A DNA stretch of 64,000 nt from a virus. Lineage: Duplodnaviria; Caudoviricetes. The translations under genes and the position numbers were made by a program. Below are positions 348-62,232 of the stretch, piece after piece. The stretch's first letter is position 1. Every line of letters begins with the position of its first letter. The DNA is taken from positions 1-64,000 of the IMG/VR virus record IMGVR_UViG_3300031994_000011, one strand, 5' to 3'. The notes below the pieces were generated by a model. That model was not told the DNA's origin. It worked only from the letters and a program-made list of their open reading frames with translations, and did no database searches.

Positions 348-620
348 CTTTCTGGTTTGTGCAGTGCCCTTCTGCTTTATGTATAAAGTATAGCATATAA
401 CATAAGAAAAGTCAAATCAGAAAATTGGATGTATTACATCCAAATTCCAAATTTATCCACCAGTTAGACACCTCTAACCACCGCCTTAAATTTCCAACTT
501 TTACCAAGTTTGACTTTTTTTTGAAACCAGTTTTCCAATTTTTGACAGAAGTTCTCCCAGAAGCTGGAAAACCACACCAAAGAAGCTGGAAGCTGGAAAA
601 TATATACAAAAATAATAGGA

Positions 621-639
621 GCTGGATAAATTATCCAGC
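621..639. repeat. 19-bp palindrome GCTGGATAAATTATCCAGC, copy 1
   Basis: Identical copy at 2315-2333. Confidence 0.85.
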
Positions 640-2004
640 ATCCTATTCAATAGCAGTCCGCGCTGCTACCAGCTGCATAAAATCATTATCAGCTGCTATT
701 TCCACATCATGCCATTCACCAGTGATATAATAGCACTGAATCTGCTTTCCATTTATACGCTTACGCTTACTCTATATTTTGTATCCAATTACTGGTAAAT
801 ACTCCTTCAATCTATTCCACGTCATTACACGATTGATATTATGATTGTTCTTACTTATCTCAGGTACATTCATATAAGCTGCCAGCTAACGGCATTTTTC
901 CAAAGTTAACCAAGTATTCATGTACTAAGCTGGAATCTATGGCGCCAAAACTTTCAAATGCCGTTGATACTAAAAAGTCTGACGAGCTGCTTGTATGCGG
1001 TCCACTTGATTTACAGAATCAATGATTACGTGGTCAAAGCGCTTATCAACAATTGTAATGCCGCGAGCCAGCGCTTTATTGACAATAACAAAGTCATACT
1101 ATAGCGGAACAAGTCCCGTAGTAACTATAATATTATACACACGGCGCTGCTATTCATCCATCGGTTTCTATTCATTCTGTAAAGAATGTAATTCAATAGC
1201 CTTAAAACCACGCGCATTAGCTGCTTTTACCAATTCTTGATTCGGCTAAATCAAAGGAGAATAGCACCAATAACCCCTGTTTAATTCAGGAGTAAGCTGG
1301 TTAATATGCTATACAATGTTACAGAAGTAAATGTCTGTAGCCGCGCGGTATCCCATCTCTAACTTACCCTGATAACTTGCGCTCACTAGCGATTTATAAT
1401 AAGCATACGCCCGCTACGGAGAAGCTGAAAGACCAATACACATAATCTAACCTAGCTAAATAATATGTTGCCACGCACCCAAAAGTATTAAAGGCATATA
1501 CTCCTTCTTTGTGGAATGAGTTTGTATAACAGAGAGTACCTATGCATTTGATACATTTTTGCGCGCAAAGTCTGTTCTCCTGGCTTTTATGAAAGCCTAC
1601 GTCGCAAAATCAAATATGCTGTCGCACTAATCCCAGCATATAACATCTATCTACTTTAAGAAATCAGTATCCTACTTTATAAATTTCATGCCAAGGCGCT
1701 GATAACACATCACTCCAATTTTATTTATATCCTATTCTGACCAAAGTTTCCGACCAGTCTCCCATAGGTCATCCGCTTCAACGCAGCTGTCTCCATACTA
1801 AGTTAGAAGCTGCTACTTCAGCGCGCTGGTGTCTACCAAAAAAAGAATCCTATGTAAATTACCATCCCTGGTAAATTGTGCCAAGTTGTTTACGGCCCAG
1901 TAAGTCTTACCTGTACGGATACCGCAATCCAAGATGTTATAGTCGCCGCGCCGGAAAATTAATTTTTTCTGCTACTGTAAATCAGTAACTGTGGTTTTCT
2001 ACAT
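631..2004 (-). CDS. superfamily-2 helicase-like protein (457 aa, many in-frame TAG)
   Basis: Hand translation is open from ATG 2004 to TAA 631 if TAG is sense. Walker A CGIRTGKT, Walker B VICWD*CD, motif III LSASP*R, motif VI-like QAARQ; GGAGG RBS. Confidence 0.85.
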
Positions 2005-2030
2005 CCTACCACCTCCTCTATTCTACTTAT

Positions 2031-2059
2031 AGTATATCATAATTTTTATCTGTTGTCAA
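2031..2059 (-). promoter_or_regulatory. sigma-A/70 promoter of helicase gene
   Basis: TTGACA-N17-TATACT on the minus strand. Confidence 0.75.
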
Positions 2060-2766: not shown

Positions 2767-3642
2767 GTGATTTTGATGAGGGAAGTTTATGTGACGATAG
2801 GGCCGTCAGGTACGGGTAAAACATACTGGGCAACACATACCTTTGATGGCGTTGTGTTTGATTCGGATAGGTATAGAGAGATTGTGTGCGGTGACAGCAT
2901 GGATCAGAAGCACAATGATGAAGTTTTTAAGAGACTGCATAAGGATTTGTTTGATTACTTGGAGAAAAATGAGAATGGGAATTGTTGCTTTTGTGCGACC
3001 AACCTGGGTTATAAGTTTAGACACAGATTTATTCAGGAATGTAGAAAAAAGTTTAATGAGATGAGAATTGTGGCAGTTGTGTTTGTGGCGCCATTGGAAG
3101 TTTGTTTGAAGAATATTGAAAAGAGAAGCAGAAAGGTTCCTGAGTATGTAGTTAGGCGCCAAATTTCACAATTTCAAATTCCATTTAAAAATGAGGGTTG
3201 GGATAGTATACGGATAGCCCCTGCCTATGGCTATACCCCTGACGAATTTGATAATGAAATTTTAAATTTGGTTTGGGAATTTGGAAATCAAGATAACCCC
3301 CATCATAATTTCACTTTACAAAAGCATTTAGAGCAAACTATGTCACTTATGATATATGAGAGTAATGAGTCACCCCTACGAGTGGCGGCCTACTTACATG
3401 ATATAGGAAAGATTTTTACTAAAGTGTTTGATGATAAAGGTATTGCGCATTATTATGGGCACGAAAATTGGTCTGCGTATCTTGCGTTGTGTTGCGGCTA
3501 CTCACTAGAGGTAGCAACTTTGTGTAATTATCATATGTTACCTTATAATGAGCAAGGAATACCTACTTGGCGCGCAAGATTGGGCGATAAGCTTTGGAAC
3601 AAGATAATGTTGTTACATGAGTGCGATAGGAGGGCACATTGA
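2767..3642 (+). CDS. polynucleotide kinase (P-loop, AAA_33-like) fused to HD domain
   Basis: GPSGTGKT, DSDRYRE, ATN and R..VP..V motifs; C-terminal H...LHDIGK...GHE...YHM HD motif. Confidence 0.85.
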   Translation: MILMREVYVTIGPSGTGKTYWATHTFDGVVFDSDRYREIVCGDSMDQKHNDEVFKRLHKDLFDYLEKNENGNCCFCATNLGYKFRHRFIQECRKKFNEMRIVAVVFVAPLEVCLKNIEKRSRKVPEYVVRRQISQFQIPFKNEGWDSIRIAPAYGYTPDEFDNEILNLVWEFGNQDNPHHNFTLQKHLEQTMSLMIYESNESPLRVAAYLHDIGKIFTKVFDDKGIAHYYGHENWSAYLALCCGYSLEVATLCNYHMLPYNEQGIPTWRARLGDKLWNKIMLLHECDRRAH

Positions 3643-5386: not shown

Positions 5387-6193
5387 TTGATGAGTAAGAA
5401 GATTGAAATTTTTCAGCATTTTGAATCCGTTCTGGATGAGTTGATTAAGCGTTCGGTATTCTTCAAGACTTATCTCCAGTATCCCGAGTATATAGATAAT
5501 GAAGTTCTCGGCGGGCAGGGTGGTATTCCCGCTAATATTTCCCTTGCTACTGGTGTAACTAGGGCGTGTATTATTGATAATGATTATGATTGGGTAGTTA
5601 AGTTTGATATTGGAGAAGATGCGCGCGGCAGTGCTTGTGAGCGCGAGAATTATACTTACAAGCGCGCTCAGATGTATAACCTTTCTCAATATTTCTCTGA
5701 AGTAATTTATCTTGGTGTATATAGAAAGACTTATACGTTTTATCAGGGATGGAAAGTTGCTAGTACTCTTTACTATGACGATTTCAGTTATACTGATAAT
5801 GACTACGCGCGCAGCTTTTTTAAGTACAAAGATAAGTTCGGTTCTTTGGAACAAATTACTGTGTCAATCCCTCTGTATGCCTATCGTAAAGTTAATCAAG
5901 AAGGCTTCTATGCTAATTCTGAATGTACCAATGAAATTGAAAATGAAATTAGCAACACTCAGTCTCCATTGTCCGCAAAGAATAAGCAGGTTGCGATTAA
6001 CTTTATTAGTAATTACGGTGCACGCGAATATGAAAAGTTAACTGACTTCTTGTATGAAATGGACATTAACGATTTTCATAGTGGTAATGTTGGTTTTGTT
6101 GATGATAAATTTGTATTGATCGACTATGCTGGTTATTATGACCCCGATTGTGAGAGTAATGAAGAGGAGGAAAATGATAGATGGAACTCTTAA
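5387..6193 (+). CDS. protein-kinase-fold hypothetical protein
   Basis: GVTR...VVK, E helix, DFHSGNVG catalytic-loop-like and IDYAG DFG-like motifs. Confidence 0.6.
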   Translation: MMSKKIEIFQHFESVLDELIKRSVFFKTYLQYPEYIDNEVLGGQGGIPANISLATGVTRACIIDNDYDWVVKFDIGEDARGSACERENYTYKRAQMYNLSQYFSEVIYLGVYRKTYTFYQGWKVASTLYYDDFSYTDNDYARSFFKYKDKFGSLEQITVSIPLYAYRKVNQEGFYANSECTNEIENEISNTQSPLSAKNKQVAINFISNYGAREYEKLTDFLYEMDINDFHSGNVGFVDDKFVLIDYAGYYDPDCESNEEEENDRWNS

Positions 6194-7329
6194 ATTTTAT
6201 GAACGCGCATGAGGACTGGGAGCGGCTTCTATCTCAGCCTCCTTATTGCTTAACTATTAAGCATGATGGTGAATATGTTTTGTTGAAGTATGACCAGATG
6301 CTTAGTGATATGACTTTGGAAATTTGTCTTGAGGCGCGCGGCGCTATTTTTCGGCAGGATAATGAAGGCCATTGGTGGTGCGCGAGCTACGGTCTGAAGA
6401 AGTTTTTTAACTATAATGAAGTCTATTCTGACTTGAAGAATATTGATTGGAATAACTGTAGGGTTAGTGAAAAGGTTGACGGTAGTAACATCAGAATTTA
6501 TATGGATAATGGTGTTTGGCACGTTTCTACCTTGGGATGTATTGATGCATTCAAGGCCGAATTTGAAAATGGTTTGAGCTATGGCGATTTGGTTGTTAAG
6601 GCTTGCGGCGGCAACCTTGAGAATTTAACTAAGCAGCTCCAGCCTGGCTTCTGCTATATCTTTGAACTTACTGGCCCTAATAGAATTGTAATTAACTATG
6701 GTGATACTCCGTATTTGTGGTATCTTGGGCGGCGCAATCAGATTACTTTTAAGGAGAATTTTGATGAAGTAAAGTTTGAAGGATTGACTATTTTCCGGCC
6801 CGCAGTTTTTGAACTGAAGACTCTGGCAGCTTGTATTCATGCTATTGAAACTATGGGAGGGGATGAAGAAGGTTATGTAGTTACTTCCATTGATAAGAAT
6901 GGTGAGCCGCATAGAGTAAAGATGAAGGGTGCTGAATATCTGCGGCTTCATGGTTTGCGTTGTAATGGTACTCTGACTGTTACTAAGGTTTTGAAGATGT
7001 GGCGCGCCAACGAACTGGATGACTTTGTTAGTGCTTTCCCTGACTATCAGGAGTTTGTGAATAGCGTCTTTGATGGTATGAACCAGCTCGCGGAAGAAAT
7101 TGAATATAACTATGACGAAATTATAAAGACTGGCGGTGAAAGAAAGGATTTGGCGCGCATAGCTTATACCTATATTCCTCCTACCCCCGGTTATGTATTT
7201 CAGCGGCTTGATAATAAGGTAGAGTCTGGTTTGGATTATTTGAATACCTTGAGCACTACTAGACTGAGCAGCTATTTGGCTCGCTTTGTAAAAGATAAAG
7301 ACCATGTTGGGGTGGTGGAAGATGAGTAA
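6181..7329 (+). CDS. T4 Rnl1-type RNA ligase
   Basis: EARG, KFFNYNE, EKVDGS (motif I), EGYVV, VKMK. Confidence 0.88.
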   Translation: MELLNFMNAHEDWERLLSQPPYCLTIKHDGEYVLLKYDQMLSDMTLEICLEARGAIFRQDNEGHWWCASYGLKKFFNYNEVYSDLKNIDWNNCRVSEKVDGSNIRIYMDNGVWHVSTLGCIDAFKAEFENGLSYGDLVVKACGGNLENLTKQLQPGFCYIFELTGPNRIVINYGDTPYLWYLGRRNQITFKENFDEVKFEGLTIFRPAVFELKTLAACIHAIETMGGDEEGYVVTSIDKNGEPHRVKMKGAEYLRLHGLRCNGTLTVTKVLKMWRANELDDFVSAFPDYQEFVNSVFDGMNQLAEEIEYNYDEIIKTGGERKDLARIAYTYIPPTPGYVFQRLDNKVESGLDYLNTLSTTRLSSYLARFVKDKDHVGVVEDE

Positions 7330-45650: not shown

Positions 45651-45998
45651 ATGAAAAACATTTTTATTTATGTAGATTATCTTAAAACCGATTATAGTTT
45701 TTCTAATGTAATCGCGCGCCATCTTAATCTATTAAATAATAATGAAACAATTGATGAAGTTTATATCGCACGCTCGTATAATAAAGCTATTGAATTACTT
45801 GAAACTTATAAAGGTGACAATATAATTATAGATTTAAGCTATAATCTATGTGAAGAAAAAACTGGGCTTGATATTTGTAAATACATTACAAAATTTAAAA
45901 TCCCAATATTATTCTTTCATATTCATTCGGTTGATTTAGAAAAACGTTTTGAAATGAGAGAAGAACTATCACAAAATGGATATAAGGAGTTTTCTTAA
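45651..45998 (+). CDS. cyclic-phosphate-processing receiver-like domain protein (possibly degenerate)
   Basis: IYVD...ARSYNKAIELL...IDLSYNL.EEKTGLDI...HIHS pattern. Confidence 0.5.
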   Translation: MKNIFIYVDYLKTDYSFSNVIARHLNLLNNNETIDEVYIARSYNKAIELLETYKGDNIIIDLSYNLCEEKTGLDICKYITKFKIPILFFHIHSVDLEKRFEMREELSQNGYKEFS

Positions 45999-46588
45999 TG
46001 TATAATATTTATTTTACTTCAGACCTACATTTTGGGCATGATAAAGATTTTATGTATGTTCCTCGTGGCTTTTCTTTTATTGAGGAACACGATAACGCAA
46101 TTATTAAAAATTGGAATGAAACCGTGCGGCCGCAAGATTATGTATATATTTTAGGAGATTTAGTCCTTGGCGATTTAGATAAGGGACTAGAAAAATTAAA
46201 TAAACTTAATGGCGCAAAATATATGATTCGTGGCAATCATGACACAGAAAATAAACTTGATAGATATTACATTGAAACCGATATTATGCCTATGGAAAGC
46301 GATGAATATACACTAGCATCTACTTTTCAAATTGGAAAATGGAATTTTTATCTAAGTCATTATCCAGTATGCTTGAATGATTATCGTTGTGCTTCTAGTA
46401 GTAGGAAATGGTGCCTTTGCGGGCATAGTCATACTAAAAATAAATGGCAGGATATTGAAAGATGTAGCTATCATGTAGAATTAGATTGCCATGATAATAG
46501 ACCCGTCTCTCTTGATGAAATTAAAAAAGATATAAATTGGTTTAAAGCATTATCCGACGAAGAAAAAATTAAACTCATAAATAATTGA
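45998..46588 (+). CDS. calcineurin-like metallophosphoesterase
   Basis: SDLHFGH, LGD, GNHD, SHYP, GHSH. Confidence 0.9.
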   Translation: MYNIYFTSDLHFGHDKDFMYVPRGFSFIEEHDNAIIKNWNETVRPQDYVYILGDLVLGDLDKGLEKLNKLNGAKYMIRGNHDTENKLDRYYIETDIMPMESDEYTLASTFQIGKWNFYLSHYPVCLNDYRCASSSRKWCLCGHSHTKNKWQDIERCSYHVELDCHDNRPVSLDEIKKDINWFKALSDEEKIKLINN

Positions 46589-47015: not shown

Positions 47016-47663
47016 ATGAGAAAGTACGAAAAAATTGAAACTATCTATGCTCGGGATACTCAAGGAACGAAGAAACTGATTCCTGGTGAGTTTAGAGATG
47101 AAACTATTCATTCGCTTGCTAATATTAGGTGGATTTGGACTGAAAAAGTAGATGGCACGAATATTCGCATTTATTGGGATGGACATAAAATCAGTTTTGG
47201 TGGTCGGACTGACTCAGCAATGATTCCTAGTCCTCTCATGAATCGGCTTAATGAACTATTTGGCGGTACAGTAAATGAGGAAGTATTTGAACAAATCTTT
47301 GGTGAAAAAGAAGTGATTCTTTTTGGCGAAGGTTATGGTAACAAAATTCAAAAAGTTGGAAAAGACTACTTGCCCGATAGTGTAAACTTTATTTTGTTTG
47401 ATGTACTTATTGGAGATAACTATCAGCCTAGAGGAACTGTTGAAAAAATCGCGGCAGCTTTTAATGTTCCTGTTGTTCCTATTGTTGGATATGGTACTCT
47501 ATATGATGCAATCAGTTATGTAGAGGCCAATCCTAAGTCTATTGTGGCGCAAGAACGTTGTAGCATGGAAGGTATTGTATGCAGGCCTGAAATGGAATTG
47601 CGCGATAGGTGCGGCAATAGGATTATCGTAAAAATTAAGTGGGAAGATTTTAAAACAATTTAA
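47016..47663 (+). CDS. Rnl2-like RNA ligase (adenylation domain)
   Basis: TEKVDGTN, LFGEGYG, FILFDV, EGIVCRP, IVKIK. Confidence 0.85.
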   Translation: MRKYEKIETIYARDTQGTKKLIPGEFRDETIHSLANIRWIWTEKVDGTNIRIYWDGHKISFGGRTDSAMIPSPLMNRLNELFGGTVNEEVFEQIFGEKEVILFGEGYGNKIQKVGKDYLPDSVNFILFDVLIGDNYQPRGTVEKIAAAFNVPVVPIVGYGTLYDAISYVEANPKSIVAQERCSMEGIVCRPEMELRDRCGNRIIVKIKWEDFKTI

Positions 47664-48936: not shown

Positions 48937-48978
48937 TCCACAGCCTTGATAAAGGCCAAGATGAAAGGAGAATATTAT

Positions 48979-50517
48979 ATGAATGAACTTTTAAAGGCTC
49001 TTAAAGAAAATTTCAACACTACTCTTACTGAAAATGGCGCGACCACATATAAGTCTACACTTGATAGTGTATATGATATGTTCGCGCTGGGTGGCGCGTA
49101 TCGTGAACGCTCTGATGAAGATGTTATTATGCTTTTTAAAAAGGCATATCAGCAAGATCCTACGCTTGCTATGAAGTGTCTATTTTATCTTCGTGATGTA
49201 ACCGAAGGCCAAGGAGAAAGACGCTTTTTTAGAGTTATCATTAACTGGTTGGCGCGCACAATGCCAGAAGAAGCACTTAATTTCCTAAAGCAAATTCCAG
49301 AATATGGAAGATTTGATGACTTGTATTCACTTATTGGTGCTTCTATTGATGAGGATGTATTTCGTTTTATTAAATCTCAGTTAATTGCTGACCTACATAC
49401 TGATACACCTTCTCTACTTGCTAAGTGGCTAAAGTCAGAAAATGCTTCTTCTCCAGAAACTAAAAAGCTTGCTACAGAAACTAGGAAGCATCTAGGTCTT
49501 ACTTCTGCTCAGTATCGTCATATGCTTTCTATGCTTCGTAATAGAATAAAAATCGTTGAGACTCTTATGTCTCAAAATCGTTGGACTGAAATTGAATTTG
49601 ATAAAATTCCTAGCCGTGCTGGATTTATTTATCGTAAGGCATTTGCTCGTAATGAACTTATTGGCGATAAGTATGCCGAATTTATGAGTAAACCTAATAC
49701 TACGGTAAATGCGAGAACTCTTTATCCTTATGAAGTCGTTGAAAAAGCAGCTAAGCTAGCCAATGGTGGATGGGGTAGTCTTCCTTCTATTGATGATGTA
49801 GAAAGAATTACTATAAATAAATATTGGGACAATCTTACCGATTATTTCAATGGTGCTACTCTTAACGCACTTGCTGTGGTAGATACATCTGGCTCTATGT
49901 GGGGACAACCCATTAACGTAGCTATTTCTCTTGGCCTATATTGTGCGGATAAGGCAAATGGACCTTTTAAGAATCATTTTATTTCCTTTAGCCGCAATCC
50001 TAAACTAATTGAAACCGTAGGTGTAGATTTCTGTGATAAAGTTAATAGAATTTATCAGCAAAATTTGTGTGAAAATACTAACATTGAAAAAACTTTTGAT
50101 TTAATTCTAAATATCGCAAGAAAAAATAATTTATCACAAAAAGAACTACCTGAGTCTCTTATTATAATTAGCGATATGGAATTTGATGCAGCAATCAGTA
50201 ACTATGATTATTATAGAGAATCTAATGGGAATAGCAGCCTAATAGAGAATATTGAAAGAAAATGGAACGCGTTCGGATATAAAATGCCGAAACTGGTTTT
50301 TTGGAATGTTAATGCGCGCCATGATAATATTCCTATGAAAGAAAGAAATGGTATTACTTTTATATCTGGTTGTTCTCCTGTAATTTTTGATATGATTATG
50401 TCGGGAAAAACTGCTAAAGAACTCATGCTAGATAAACTACTATCTGATAGGTATGCTAAAATCTTTTCTGTAACTGATCATAAATATTTGCTATATAAAA
50501 ATCTTATAAATACTTGA
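48979..50517 (+). CDS. DUF2828-family (TROVE/Ro60-like + vWA) protein
   Basis: TENGA, LFYLRDV..GQGER, EYGRFDD, AKW, VVDTSGSM (MIDAS), ISDMEFD, VFWNV. Confidence 0.85.
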   Translation: MNELLKALKENFNTTLTENGATTYKSTLDSVYDMFALGGAYRERSDEDVIMLFKKAYQQDPTLAMKCLFYLRDVTEGQGERRFFRVIINWLARTMPEEALNFLKQIPEYGRFDDLYSLIGASIDEDVFRFIKSQLIADLHTDTPSLLAKWLKSENASSPETKKLATETRKHLGLTSAQYRHMLSMLRNRIKIVETLMSQNRWTEIEFDKIPSRAGFIYRKAFARNELIGDKYAEFMSKPNTTVNARTLYPYEVVEKAAKLANGGWGSLPSIDDVERITINKYWDNLTDYFNGATLNALAVVDTSGSMWGQPINVAISLGLYCADKANGPFKNHFISFSRNPKLIETVGVDFCDKVNRIYQQNLCENTNIEKTFDLILNIARKNNLSQKELPESLIIISDMEFDAAISNYDYYRESNGNSSLIENIERKWNAFGYKMPKLVFWNVNARHDNIPMKERNGITFISGCSPVIFDMIMSGKTAKELMLDKLLSDRYAKIFSVTDHKYLLYKNLINT

Positions 50518-50542
50518 CTTTCTTTTAAATTTATAGTATAAT
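50514..50542 (+). promoter_or_regulatory. sigma-A promoter driving the suppressor-tRNA operon
   Basis: TTGACT-N17-TATAAT. Confidence 0.85.
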
Positions 50543-50569: not shown

Positions 50570-50642
50570 GGCGGTATCTTCTAGTGGTCTAGGAAAACGG
50601 TCTCTAAAACCGATAACCCGGGTCCGAATCCCGGTACCGCTA
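50570..50642 (+). tRNA. amber-decoding tRNA (CUA) with tRNA-Glu-type body
   Basis: GGCGGTA/TACCGCT acceptor, TTCT/GGAA D-stem, ACGGT-CTCTAAA-ACCGA (CTA at 50604-50606), 4-nt TAAC variable loop. Confidence 0.92.
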
Positions 50643-50646
50643 CTCT

Positions 50647-50759: not shown

Positions 50760-50900
50760 TGGGGTGTAGCCAAATGGTAAGGCAACGGACTTATCAGGAT
50801 AGCATAACGCAATGCGCTCCGGCAGGAGAGAAGCGTGGGTCATAACCAGCTCCTGATGCAATGACTCCGTGATTTGCTGGTCCGATTCCAGCCACCCCAG
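50760..50900 (+). tRNA. tRNA-Gln(UUG) interrupted by a 69-nt tRNA-like insert (50793-50861)
   Basis: Removing the insert gives ACGGA-CTTTGAC-TCCGT with U1-A72. Confidence 0.85.
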
Positions 50901-50923
50901 CTATTTTATTATTGGAGGCTAAT

Positions 50924-51364
50924 ATGCGTCAAATTATTATTGTTCGTAAAGATTTGAATATGAATTCCGGTAAACTTGCGGCACAGGTGGCGCATGCTTC
51001 CTTGGCTTTTATTTCTAATGCTATTCGTAATTGCGTAGAATGTTCAAGTTTAAGTCAAAATTATCTTATAAGTTTGAAAATTCCAAAAGATGTATACGAA
51101 CAGTGGTTCTGTGGAATATTTACTAAGACCGTTTGTGAAGCCAAAAATCACAGACAAATAATGAAAGCTATATCTATTGCCGAAGAGATTGGTCTTAAAG
51201 AAGGCACAGATTTTTTTCTCATTAAAGATGCTTGCCTTACAGATCTAGAACCAGAAGAAATCGATGAAAATGGGCAAGGCCGTACTCTTACTTGTATTGG
51301 TTTCAGGCCTCTTGACGATGAGACAGCTTGGAAAATTTCTAAAAAATTTCAACTGTATCACTGA
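50924..51364 (+). CDS. pth2: peptidyl-tRNA hydrolase, Pth2 family
   Basis: QIIIVRKDLNMNSGKLAAQVAHAS, IKDACLT, TLTCIGFRP. Confidence 0.9.
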   Translation: MRQIIIVRKDLNMNSGKLAAQVAHASLAFISNAIRNCVECSSLSQNYLISLKIPKDVYEQWFCGIFTKTVCEAKNHRQIMKAISIAEEIGLKEGTDFFLIKDACLTDLEPEEIDENGQGRTLTCIGFRPLDDETAWKISKKFQLYH

Positions 51365-54167: not shown

Positions 54168-55244
54168 ATGGAAGTCAAAGTTGTAATTGGCAGTAACTAT
54201 GGCGATGAAGGCAAGGGACTAGTATCAGCAAATCTCGCGCGCGTGGCAAAGCAAGAAAATAAAAAAACTCTAACCGTATTCTATAATGGTACTACACAGA
54301 GAGCACATTCATTTGGAGATACAGTACGTCATTGTACCGCCGCTGGCGAAGGATTTGGTAGTGATACTTATTATCATCCTATGTTTGTAGTTGATCCAAT
54401 TGCACTTTGGCTTACCCAGTCTTATGTGTATATTGACCCAAATTGTCGTGTAATTCTACCTTGCGATGTTATGGACAATCGCAAGATAGAGAAAAGCCGC
54501 GGTGACAAGCGTCATGGCTCATGTGGATTAGGTCTATTCGCTGCGGTAAAACGCAGCAAAAAATTAGAAGATAATGTTGTAATTAATGATTTTCATAGTC
54601 CATATAATCTATATTTTAAATTAAAAGAAATTGAACGACGTCATCCAACAGAAAAAGATACGCTATATAATATTGATATGTTTATGCGGGCGGTCGCGTG
54701 GATTGTGAATAATTGTAGAATTATTACATTTGACAACTTGGTAAAAAATCATCAGTATGATACAATTATTTACGAAGGCGGACAAGGACTACTACTTGAC
54801 CAAACCAATATGGATGATTTTCCGCACTTAACTCCTTCCAGTGTAGGTATGTACAATATTACACATGATATTAATAAATTAAATTGTACGCCTGAACTAT
54901 TCTATGTTTCGCGCACTTATATGACACGACATGGCGCGGGCCCCATGGAATTTGAATGTAAAAAAGAAGATATTAATCCAAGCATTGTTGACAATATTAA
55001 TCAACCAAACGAATGGCAAGGCACTTTAAGATTTGGTTATATTGATTTAGAAACTCTTTATAAACGTATACAAAAAGATGCCGCGTTATATAATAATAAT
55101 TCAAATATTAATCTTGTTTTTACTCAATTAAATTACACTAATAATAAAATTGAAACAAATAAAGGCCGAGTAGATATTATTAAACCAAACTTTTGTTCAA
55201 AAATTTATGTTTCTACTGATAAATTTTATATATATAATATTTGA
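54168..55244 (+). CDS. adenylosuccinate-synthetase-like protein (divergent PurA family)
   Basis: GSNYGDEGKG, HGSCGLG, EGGQGLLLD, TRHGAGP, WQGTLRFG. Confidence 0.85.
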   Translation: MEVKVVIGSNYGDEGKGLVSANLARVAKQENKKTLTVFYNGTTQRAHSFGDTVRHCTAAGEGFGSDTYYHPMFVVDPIALWLTQSYVYIDPNCRVILPCDVMDNRKIEKSRGDKRHGSCGLGLFAAVKRSKKLEDNVVINDFHSPYNLYFKLKEIERRHPTEKDTLYNIDMFMRAVAWIVNNCRIITFDNLVKNHQYDTIIYEGGQGLLLDQTNMDDFPHLTPSSVGMYNITHDINKLNCTPELFYVSRTYMTRHGAGPMEFECKKEDINPSIVDNINQPNEWQGTLRFGYIDLETLYKRIQKDAALYNNNSNINLVFTQLNYTNNKIETNKGRVDIIKPNFCSKIYVSTDKFYIYNI

Positions 55245-55951: not shown

Positions 55952-56099
55952 GCGCCATTAGCTCAGTTGGTAGAGCACGTGACTTTGGGGCGGTAGTGTA
56001 AAGAACACGCTAGGAAAGCAAGGGCCTAGAAAATGAAGGGCGGTACTAAGACGCCCCGCCATAATCACGGCGTCCGCGGTTCAATTCCGCGATGGCGCA
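55952..56099 (+). tRNA. tRNA-Lys(UUU) interrupted by a 75-nt tRNA-like insert (55987-56061)
   Basis: Removing the insert gives CGTGA-CTTTTAA-TCACG. Confidence 0.85.
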
Positions 56100-56466: not shown

Positions 56467-57720
56467 TTGGCGAAAGCCAAGACGAACGCCATAAGTCTTT
56501 AAAGTTTTCAGTCTTTCTAAAAACTGGCGGCAGTCCTAAAGCATATGGACATTAAATAAATAGCTTGACCAACCATTTTAGGTCAGATAAAATGGTGCGC
56601 TACACTTCGGAAATGGGAAGTGGGGATAAGTAAAGACCAGATTGAGATACACGTTGGGTGGTAAGTCCTATATAGGCCGTAATTCCAAGTACGTGGGCCG
56701 CCTCAAAACAAGAAGCGAATGGGTAAAATTGAGATGAGTCGTCTTAACTGCTTCACGCGCAAACTGAATGGTGCCGCATAGCCAGATTGCTCGGCGCGTA
56801 ATAAAAGAAGAGCAAAATAAGTGCTTTGTAATGAACGATAAAGTTGGTATGAAACGTTCCAGCCATTACAACCGCACATCGTTCGCGGTATATTAAGTAA
56901 GCGGTCTCGGCAAGCAGGGGCAAACTGCTGCAACTCTGGTAGGCAGGCAGAGTAACTGGATACAGACCCAGTATAAAAAGGTGCCGCGCTTATAAGCCGC
57001 AAGTTCGCAATAGCTTATACAGTTGCCCACTCTGTAAAAGGAGGCGCGCTGATAGACCGCAAGTATAAATAGTCTATTGCCACTAAGCCAAAGTGGGATA
57101 TAAATGAGAGCGGTAGACATCCTAACAAGAATGTTACGACGTATAGGACAAGGCTCCATCTAAATAGATGGGAAGCGCTATATAATAAGGTGCCCAAATG
57201 ACTACTAGGCAGTTTGAACTGCTAGCAGAGATGTACACTCTGATAAAAGTAAGAATGGGTTAAATGGAGTTTGAAGAACAGCCAATTGCAGAAAATGCTG
57301 TATAGTCATATCACCGAATGAAAGTTTAAGCGACATGTAATGTCGTCGGCTATGACGAGCGCAAACTGAAAGGGTTATGTACTATACCCATATTGCTCGG
57401 CGCAGTATAAAAAGGAGCAAAATAATGTACTACTAGTCAGCGGGTAAAGTGGAAATGAGTCGTTTCCACGACTAGTCACGGCTGAAAAACGGGATGGAAG
57501 GAAAATAATGGGTGAAGTCCTTACTGATTGTTAACAAATTAGAAAAGCGGCAGAGATGCCCTCCGCACCCGTCATACTATGTAGGCCAAAATGCGACCGC
57601 TGTAAACGGTTAGGGTGAAAACGAACCCTTGACAATGAATGTAGGAACAGCATTCTGACGCAGTGTGAGTGGATGAAATTTCCCTCCCCAGGAGGCGCGC
57701 CCTGGGTTATCAAAACACCC
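56467..57720 (+). ncRNA. large structured non-coding RNA candidate (GOLLD/ROOL-like context) with internal duplicated domain
   Basis: 1.25 kb with no plus-strand ORF, raised GC, many hairpins, flanked by tRNAs. Confidence 0.6.
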
Positions 57721-60814: not shown

Positions 60815-60932
60815 GCCAGATTAGCTCAATTGGTAGAGCAATCGCCTTGCGGAAATACTAGAAATAGTCAGTGCAATTCTGATGTTTCCGACTATAAGCG
60901 ATAGGCTTTCGGTTCAAGTCCGGAATCTGGCT
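60815..60932 (+). tRNA. tRNA-Thr(UGU) interrupted by a 45-nt mini-tRNA insert (60850-60894)
   Basis: Removing the insert gives ATCGC-CTTGTAA-GCGAT. Confidence 0.85.
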
Positions 60933-62100: not shown

Positions 62101-62232
62101 GCGGATATGGTGGAATAGGCAGACACCTCAGACAGCAGGTGCGCAGTCGTTACAATTGGGGCAGCACCAATACCTGCTACCATTAAAATCTGATGTCCTC
62201 TGGACGTGCCGGTTCGAGTCCGGCTATCCGCA
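62101..62232 (+). tRNA. tRNA-Leu(UAA) interrupted by a 49-nt mini-tRNA insert (62134-62182)
   Basis: Removing the insert gives TCAGA-CTTAAAA-TCTGA; long variable arm; A73. Confidence 0.88.

Follow-up and report, generated by a model that had tools for sequence, protein, structure and literature searches.

A putative superfamily 2 (SF2) helicase gene near the left end of a tailed-phage genome combines a conserved host-type promoter with 24 in-frame TAG codons, which this phage reads as glutamate (Glu). The gene lies in a window of 64,000 nucleotides, the first 64 kb of the complete 171,958-bp IMG/VR virus record IMGVR_UViG_3300031994_000011 (Duplodnaviria; Caudoviricetes; hereafter G000), which has a GC content of 34% and ends that share only a 127-bp repeat. 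G000 is a sheep-gut phage, and two metatranscriptome runs (X1 and X2) of one sheep-gut sample contain its DNA. We consider it probable, if only modestly so, that the helicase belongs to a small conserved class of host-transcribed, TAG-heavy genes, together with a sigma-like factor and a GIY-YIG nuclease, that await the amber suppressor tRNA of the phage, while the replisome is kept free of TAG. Orthologues of the helicase were collected from IMG/VR (41 sequences), and all genes were compared with those of four complete or near-complete relatives (G001, G002, G004 and G005). The meaning of TAG varies among the relatives, being Gln (glutamine) or stop, G001 excepted (Glu).

The helicase locus is a self-contained single-gene transcription unit with its own promoter, Shine–Dalgarno sequence, open reading frame (ORF) and terminator. 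Its features are the following.

631..2004, minus strand: SF2 helicase gene, 457 codons plus TAA, with 24 in-frame TAG codons read as Glu; start ATG at 2004..2002, stop TAA at 633..631.
1999..2001, minus strand: TAG at codon 2, read from the sequence.
2031..2059, minus strand: sigma-A-type promoter, TTGACA (2059..2054), 17 nt, TG-n-TATACT (TATACT at 2036..2031); 11/12 matches.
2009..2018, minus strand: Shine–Dalgarno sequence GAGGAGGTGG, ending 4 nt before the ATG, read from the sequence.
621..639, minus strand: intrinsic-terminator-like hairpin with a T-rich tail, overlapping the helicase stop codon.
1903..1923, minus strand: Walker A, G-I-R-T-G-K-T, codons 28–34.
1627..1632, minus strand: Walker B, D125-E126; E126 (codon 126, 1629..1627) is a TAG within W-D-[TAG]-C-D-S.

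The first-pass annotation had placed a helicase gene at 631–2059, with a consensus sigma-A promoter and ribosome-binding site, TAG as codon 2 and as the Walker B Glu, and roughly 20 further TAGs, and had reported that the standard ORF track misses it. The coordinates are correct and the strand is minus; a plus-strand reading of 631–2059 was rejected, as stops occur throughout all frames. The promoter, the Shine–Dalgarno sequence and the TAG at 2001..1999 were all found as described, and translation table 11 gives no ORF of at least 40 aa in the frame of the gene. The number of further TAGs was refined to exactly 23. At the Walker B column, 40 of the 41 orthologues have Glu and the remaining one has TAG, and GGAGG or GAGGTG occurs in the orthologues at the position matching the Shine–Dalgarno sequence. 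The gene is transcribed away from a TAG-free early block that starts at 2767, with a perfect consensus promoter ahead of it. The divergent intergenic region between the two also contains a run of 14 C at 2182–2195 (14 G when read on the minus strand) between the arms of the inverted repeat GAGTACC/GGTACTC.

Alignment with relatives confirmed the first-pass assumption that G000 reads TAG as Glu, and not as Gln. In the 41-orthologue alignment, 15 of the 24 helicase TAG columns are Glu by majority, with Glu present in 93% or more of the sequences at positions 126, 155, 197, 285 and 302; the helicase TAGs of most relatives sit in Gln columns instead. Genome-wide, TAG in G000 aligned with Glu in the relatives, with a substitution profile (49% Glu, 11% Asp and 7% Gln) the same as that of the GAR-codon control and a log-likelihood gap of more than 870 between Glu and the next residue. 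Glu was also best in G001 (gap of 245), Gln was clearly best in G004 and G005, and G002 essentially uses the standard code. Codon composition agreed, as GAA and GAG together account for 7.4% of the codons of TAG-free genes versus 5.45% in TAG-bearing genes, where TAG adds 2.83%. A Gln reading, which would also turn the Walker B motif into D-Q-x-D, was rejected on the alignment columns, the genome-wide likelihood and the codon composition. The catalytic Walker B Glu, being itself written as TAG, provides a functional check on this unusual code. The alignment of TAG with Gln in standard-code homologues that defines genetic code 15 was found for G004 and G005 and not for G000. Our literature searches found no phage with TAG read as Glu. 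G002 (IMGVR_UViG_3300021399_000003) behaves as a standard-code phage, with almost no aligned in-frame TAG and none in its helicase gene; it still has a tRNA with a CUA anticodon (91293–91369, minus strand), unlike the suppressor tRNA of G000.

Helicase copies are also present in public protein collections. The closest database proteins (P0001–P0003 and P0006; 84–99% identical, one at 79%) begin with 'MQ', which probably hides an ATG-TAG start. P0001–P0003, at 84–99% identity, read W-D-Q-C-D-S, with Gln in place of the invariant Walker B Glu, and many fragments of 40–260 aa are also deposited. Such copies and fragments probably stem from code-15 or standard-code gene calling of phages that read TAG as Glu or Gln, and annotation pipelines, therefore, need a TAG=Glu option.

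The predicted product is an accessory SF2 (DExD/H, ResIII/DEAD-like) helicase or translocase of an uncharacterized phage family, as judged by motifs, family matches and the modeled fold, which bears out the earlier label of helicase. The Pfam family ResIII (PF04851) was matched at 36.6 bits with TAG translated as Glu, above the gathering cut-off of 22.5, and at 31.8 bits with TAG as Gln. A wider alignment of 37 sequences, with identity down to about 20%, included distant full-length relatives (20–36% identity); ResIII was matched in 35 and DEAD (PF00270) in 24 of the 37. The invariant residues of this alignment are G32 and K33 (Walker A), D125 and E126 (Walker B), A194 (motif III) and Q338 (motif VI), with R341 almost invariant. 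The protein thus shares with SF2 DExD/H helicases (PF04851/PF00270) the Walker A motif, the Walker B D-E, an S-A-S/T motif III and a Q..R motif VI. An AlphaFold2 model of the TAG=Glu translation (predicted local distance difference test 88.6, predicted template modeling score 0.80) contains two RecA-like domains and a C-terminal domain of ~100 residues. SF2 helicases were its top fold matches (Z of 12–17.5 over 270–320 residues; Foldseek probability of 1.0), and the structural matches (PDB Foldseek, VIA wide and BFVD) comprised NS3-type, DEAH, FANCM, RecQ, INO80 and Cas3 helicases with none favored. Pfam Helicase_C was not matched, the C-terminal helicase domain having diverged too far. No match was obtained by tblastn against 50,697 GenBank phages or by phmmer against PDB sequences at E up to 1, and PHROGs gave nothing with TAG as Gln and weak matches with TAG as Glu (phrog_16, E of 7e-5).

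Both the promoter and the TAG load of the helicase gene recur among its orthologues. The promoter was kept in 40 of the 41 orthologous loci (TTGAC(A/T), 17–18 nt, TATA(A/C)T, 16–36 nt before the ATG), almost always with the TG extension. TAGs were present in 34 of the 41 orthologues, 1–19 each, in Gln-reading and Glu-reading lineages alike, and in many of them most codons for the amino acid concerned are TAG. In G000, 24 of the 40 helicase Glu codons are TAG (60%), compared to 34% in the other TAG-bearing genes (binomial P of about 7e-4). Ranked by TAG density, the helicase gene stands third of 91 genes in G000, third of 84 in G001 and fifth of 94 in G005, and in most loci its neighbors on both sides lack TAG. 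A tree of the helicase proteins joins the two TAG=Glu members (G000 and L010) as a supported pair, next to a sister clade with few or no TAGs and with the TAG=Gln clades further out; the Glu-type load was therefore built independently of the Gln-type loads. Judged from these comparisons, the conserved feature is the pairing of a host-type promoter with a TAG load and not the TAG at codon 2.

The comparisons do not support a special role for the ATG-TAG start itself, which the first-pass annotation had read as a possible translational gate. Codon 2 is never TAG in the 41 IMG/VR orthologues, where the second residue varies or is missing and the first TAG comes at codon 7 at the earliest. The first four Glu codons of the G000 gene are all TAG, and with 60% of the Glu codons being TAG, a TAG at the first of them is the expected outcome. 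As to conservation of the early TAG, suggested at the time as a check, the first TAG falls within 16 codons in 21 of the 34 TAG-bearing orthologues, whose N-terminus is rich in Gln and Glu, but neither the codon-2 position nor any 5' excess (see below) was found.

The tRNA required to translate the helicase gene was identified in the window, with a promoter of its own.

50570..50643, plus strand: amber suppressor tRNA with anticodon CUA, the sole CUA tRNA of G000.
50514..50542, plus strand: sigma-A-type promoter of the suppressor tRNA, TTGACT, 17 nt, TATAAT, inside the TAG-free tRNA region.

Read from the sequence, the tRNA has U11-A24, U13-G22, A46 and a 4-nt variable loop, which we take to be the 'augmented D-helix' identity elements of bacterial tRNA-Glu. 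A suppressor tRNA of 83–85% identity was present only in G001, the other TAG=Glu relative; identity to the tRNA-Glu and tRNA-Gln of the relatives was 46–55%, too divergent to decide between the two. Neither a phage-encoded release factor nor a glutamyl- or glutaminyl-tRNA synthetase was found in G000, and charging would thus fall to a host enzyme, with decoding in competition with host release factor 1 (RF1).

These features suggest how the gene may be expressed. Host RNA polymerase could transcribe the helicase from the start of infection. Before suppression becomes effective, host RF1 would read TAG as stop and release formylmethionine at codon 2, with 23 more TAGs to follow, and full-length helicase would be made only once the phage tRNA(CUA), carrying Glu attached by the host enzyme, prevails over RF1. 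The yield would be roughly the suppression efficiency raised to the power of 24, about 0.5% at 80% per codon, 8% at 90% and 48% at 97%, so that helicase output would respond steeply, in a threshold-like manner, to the code switch. The likely effect would be to place or limit the helicase after the early phase (middle or late, at low dose) and not to start replication. Because of the 24 TAGs, the first at codon 2, the reading frame supports the conclusion that the gene cannot yield protein without amber suppression. The first-pass annotation had proposed that the mRNA is made at once and gives protein only after the amber tRNA accumulates, thereby coupling replication onset to the code switch; the dependence of translation on the suppressor tRNA is retained, but the link to replication is not.

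The replisome genes speak against that link. No TAG occurs in the G000 genes for the DnaB-like helicase, the DNA polymerase III alpha subunit (Pol III alpha), gyrase B and A, RecJ, an AAA_24 ATPase and NrdD. The SF2 gene was also considered as the replicative (DnaB-type) helicase and rejected, as it matches SF2 families only and DnaB_C is carried by a separate gene.

89815–91419 (genome): DnaB_C helicase gene, TAG-free, the replicative helicase candidate.

As the DnaB-like helicase and the other replisome genes are TAG-free, replication onset is not tied to the SF2 helicase gene. The DNA-metabolism genes that do bear TAGs are the SF2 helicase, a RuvC-like resolvase, PhoH and the GIY-YIG nuclease, a set that, we infer, looks more like late DNA processing. 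Pol III alpha of G000 (genome 94657–99856, plus strand) consists of two ORFs (796 and 530 aa) split by a 319-aa ORF with three TAGs (97143–98102), which may be an inserted mobile element; in four relatives, Pol III alpha is one ORF of about 1,325 aa.

The distribution of promoters and TAGs was then considered genome-wide. In total, 97 of the 182 called G000 genes are TAG-free, the replisome included, and the tail, portal and lysin genes carry TAGs. Intergenic promoter matches of at least 11/12 numbered 61 versus 9–18 in first-order Markov simulations, an excess of four to six times. Among the 22 genes lying no more than 200 nt downstream of such a match, 16 are without TAG, in agreement with the earlier observation that most other sigma-A-driven genes are TAG-free. 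Two genes outside the window resemble the helicase in combining a host-type promoter with a TAG load.

150105–151439 (genome), minus strand: sigma-like factor gene (phrog_5767, E of 4.5e-19) with 11 TAGs, at the head of the minus-strand late block (virion operon).
104052–105023 (genome): GIY-YIG nuclease gene, with 27 TAGs in G000.

The sigma-like factor gene has the promoter TTGACA, 17 nt, TAAAAT in G000 and TTGACA, 17–18 nt, TA(A/T)AAT-type sequences across genomes; it contains 11, 5, 8 and 5 TAGs in G000, G001, G004 and G005, respectively, and none in standard-code G002. The GIY-YIG gene contains 27, 6 and 11 TAGs in G000, G001 and G005, respectively, and one in G002 (G004 was left out, as the match was only a partial 106-aa ORF), and its 11/12 promoter was found in G000, G001, G002 and G005. 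The DnaB-like and Pol III alpha genes have zero or one TAG in the five genomes, and the Pol III alpha promoter is equally good. More tentatively, and with rather less than even confidence, we suggest that this phage family runs part of its temporal program by codon choice and not by promoter choice: a fixed set of TAG-loaded genes with host promoters would switch on in threshold fashion as the tRNA overtakes RF1, late transcription via the sigma-like factor included, and the set would have mattered enough to be built anew when TAG, formerly Gln (or stop), came to mean Glu.

Several observations weigh against a class of genes held for the suppressor tRNA. TAG positions are not conserved among the helicase orthologues, seven of which (of 41) carry no TAG at all. 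No 5' bias of TAG was detected, either in the orthologues (26 early TAGs observed versus 22.1 expected) or genome-wide (TAG as first cognate codon in 12 cases versus 11.6 expected), and TAG showed no preference for conserved Glu columns of the helicase (8 TAG to 4 GAR in conserved versus 16 to 12 in variable columns). Some late-operon genes avoid TAG altogether, such as that of a virion structural protein at genome 137034–137816, suggesting that TAG density may track protein dose and not time. All of this would be expected if TAG were simply a tolerated, somewhat inefficient Glu codon that accumulates neutrally in low-copy genes not needed early, with no regulatory purpose. We regard this explanation by drift and dose as possible, though on the unlikely side. 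It accounts less well for the repeated top rank of the helicase, which is among the most TAG-saturated genes in three genomes and exceeds the late-gene average in TAG share, and for the reloading of the gene with TAG in the Glu lineage independently of the Gln lineages; equally low-copy replisome enzymes, moreover, have stayed at zero or one TAG in all five genomes.

Further points against a tRNA-dependent class concern the timing of transcription. The suppressor tRNA has a strong host-type promoter of its own, as good as that of the helicase, so that the gate could open early and the delay may be short. Untranslated helicase mRNA may also be unstable or prematurely terminated, so that the mRNA may not be made at once after all. 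On the supporting side, in one metatranscriptome run, error-free contigs cover 1–366, 702–2009 (the helicase) and 2770 onward, with breaks at intergenic regions, near the predicted unit borders; the breaks fit separate transcripts, the helicase having one of its own, although contigs assembled from a single sample give no information on strand, transcript ends or level, and DNA carry-over may contribute.

The helicase could instead be an ordinary late gene whose sigma-A-like promoter is kept inactive early in infection, through occlusion, repression or the need for a phage factor. A perfect 14-bp palindrome, GTCAAATATTTGAC, overlaps the −35 element of the helicase promoter in G000, with similar copies at 2376 and 2503, and the gene is oriented opposite to the adjoining early block. 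Run X1 has contigs over the early block and none over the helicase, a faint hint in the same direction; the helicase was covered in run X2 of the same sample, and a hole in contigs proves nothing. However, the full palindrome was absent from the 28 orthologous promoters listed, and a conserved operator at this promoter was accordingly rejected. The core promoter, moreover, is conserved and as good as those of the TAG-free early genes, and other late genes are mostly without such promoters. We consider this late-transcription account improbable. Least likely of all, and very doubtful in our view, is an ATG-TAG start purpose-built on a replication helicase so that replication follows only after the code switch: the TAGs at codon 2 and at the first four Glu codons, the conserved host-type promoter and the frequent first TAG within 16 codons of TAG-bearing orthologues invite that idea, but the whole replisome, the DnaB-like helicase included, is without TAG, codon 2 is TAG in no IMG/VR orthologue and variable in residue, the number of early TAGs does not exceed that expected from the gene-wide share and the 60% share alone makes a TAG at the first Glu codon likelier than not.

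A possible parallel comes from phage T4, in which UvsW is a late-expressed SF2 helicase that shifts the mode of replication. T4 times UvsW by late transcription and not by codon choice. Both proteins are accessory SF2 helicases of large lytic phages whose action may be wanted after early replication, and the RuvC-like resolvase of G000 is TAG-bearing as well. UvsW was, however, not among the structural matches listed for the G000 helicase, a list that need not contain every related family, and the helicase has no sequence match to any solved structure.

Stop-codon recoding has been proposed to time late phage genes, a proposal that rests on gene-class correlations. The code-15 gut phages (crAss-like, Lak, Garnet and Agate, among others; bioRxiv 10.1101/2021.08.26.457843, PMC9523058) share with G000 the concentration of TAG in structural and lysis genes, replication genes in the standard code and a phage-encoded CUA suppressor tRNA. 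G000 shows this pattern, with TAG absent from early and replication genes, and differs in that its TAG aligns with Glu, not Gln. Among phages with a code differing from that of the host, Borges et al. described only TAG=Gln and TGA=Trp, and neither promoters nor host-promoter-driven recoded genes as a class are a subject of their preprint (bioRxiv 10.1101/2021.08.26.457843). Reassignment of a stop codon to Glu is otherwise known from the nuclear code of peritrich ciliates, in which UAA and UAG encode Glu (Sanchez-Silva et al. 2003, cited in PMC4967479). As far as that code is described there, it is eukaryotic, involves both codons and applies to the whole genome, whereas G000 is viral, uses TAG alone and avoids it in early genes. 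The helicase gene offers a clean testable unit for the timing proposal, in which a conserved host-type promoter and a short leader precede an ORF predicted to be unreadable without the phage tRNA, and close relatives with 0–24 helicase TAGs and two meanings of TAG provide natural controls.

Several other features of the window were recorded. At the left end, the plausible gene is the minus-strand ORF at 9–347 (acidic and protein-like) and not the plus-strand ORF at 15–386, which is hydrophobic and of low complexity. The left-end ORF is preceded by a 10/12 promoter (415..387, minus strand) with the palindrome TTGGATGTAATACATCCAA (443..425), which also occurs ahead of many promoters at genome 153–170 kb. 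A TAG-free gene at 54168–55244 (plus strand) encodes a 358-aa protein that matches adenylosuccinate synthetase (PF00709, E of 1.3e-15) and is shorter than PurA, as are the PurZ enzymes of phages that replace adenine by 2-aminoadenine.

The tRNA region is surrounded by TAG-free genes of RNA-repair type on the plus strand (2767–3642, 6181–7329, 45998–46588, 47016–47663, 48946–50517 and 50912–51364), a set comprising an AAA_33+HD protein (kinase/phosphatase-like), two RNA ligases, a metallophosphoesterase, a DUF2828/DUF7788 protein and the peptidyl-tRNA hydrolase PTH2. The DUF2828/DUF7788 gene lies just upstream of the suppressor tRNA and the PTH2 gene just downstream. Rfam tRNA matches of 118–148 nt at 50760–50900, 55952–56099, 60815–60932 and 62101–62232 (plus strand) were resolved by ARAGORN as tRNAs with anticodon-loop inserts of 45–75 nt. 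The tRNA region also contains a match to the Rfam DUF3800-I RNA (RF02969) at 57281–57386 (plus strand), with 57.3 bits against a cut-off of 44.2.

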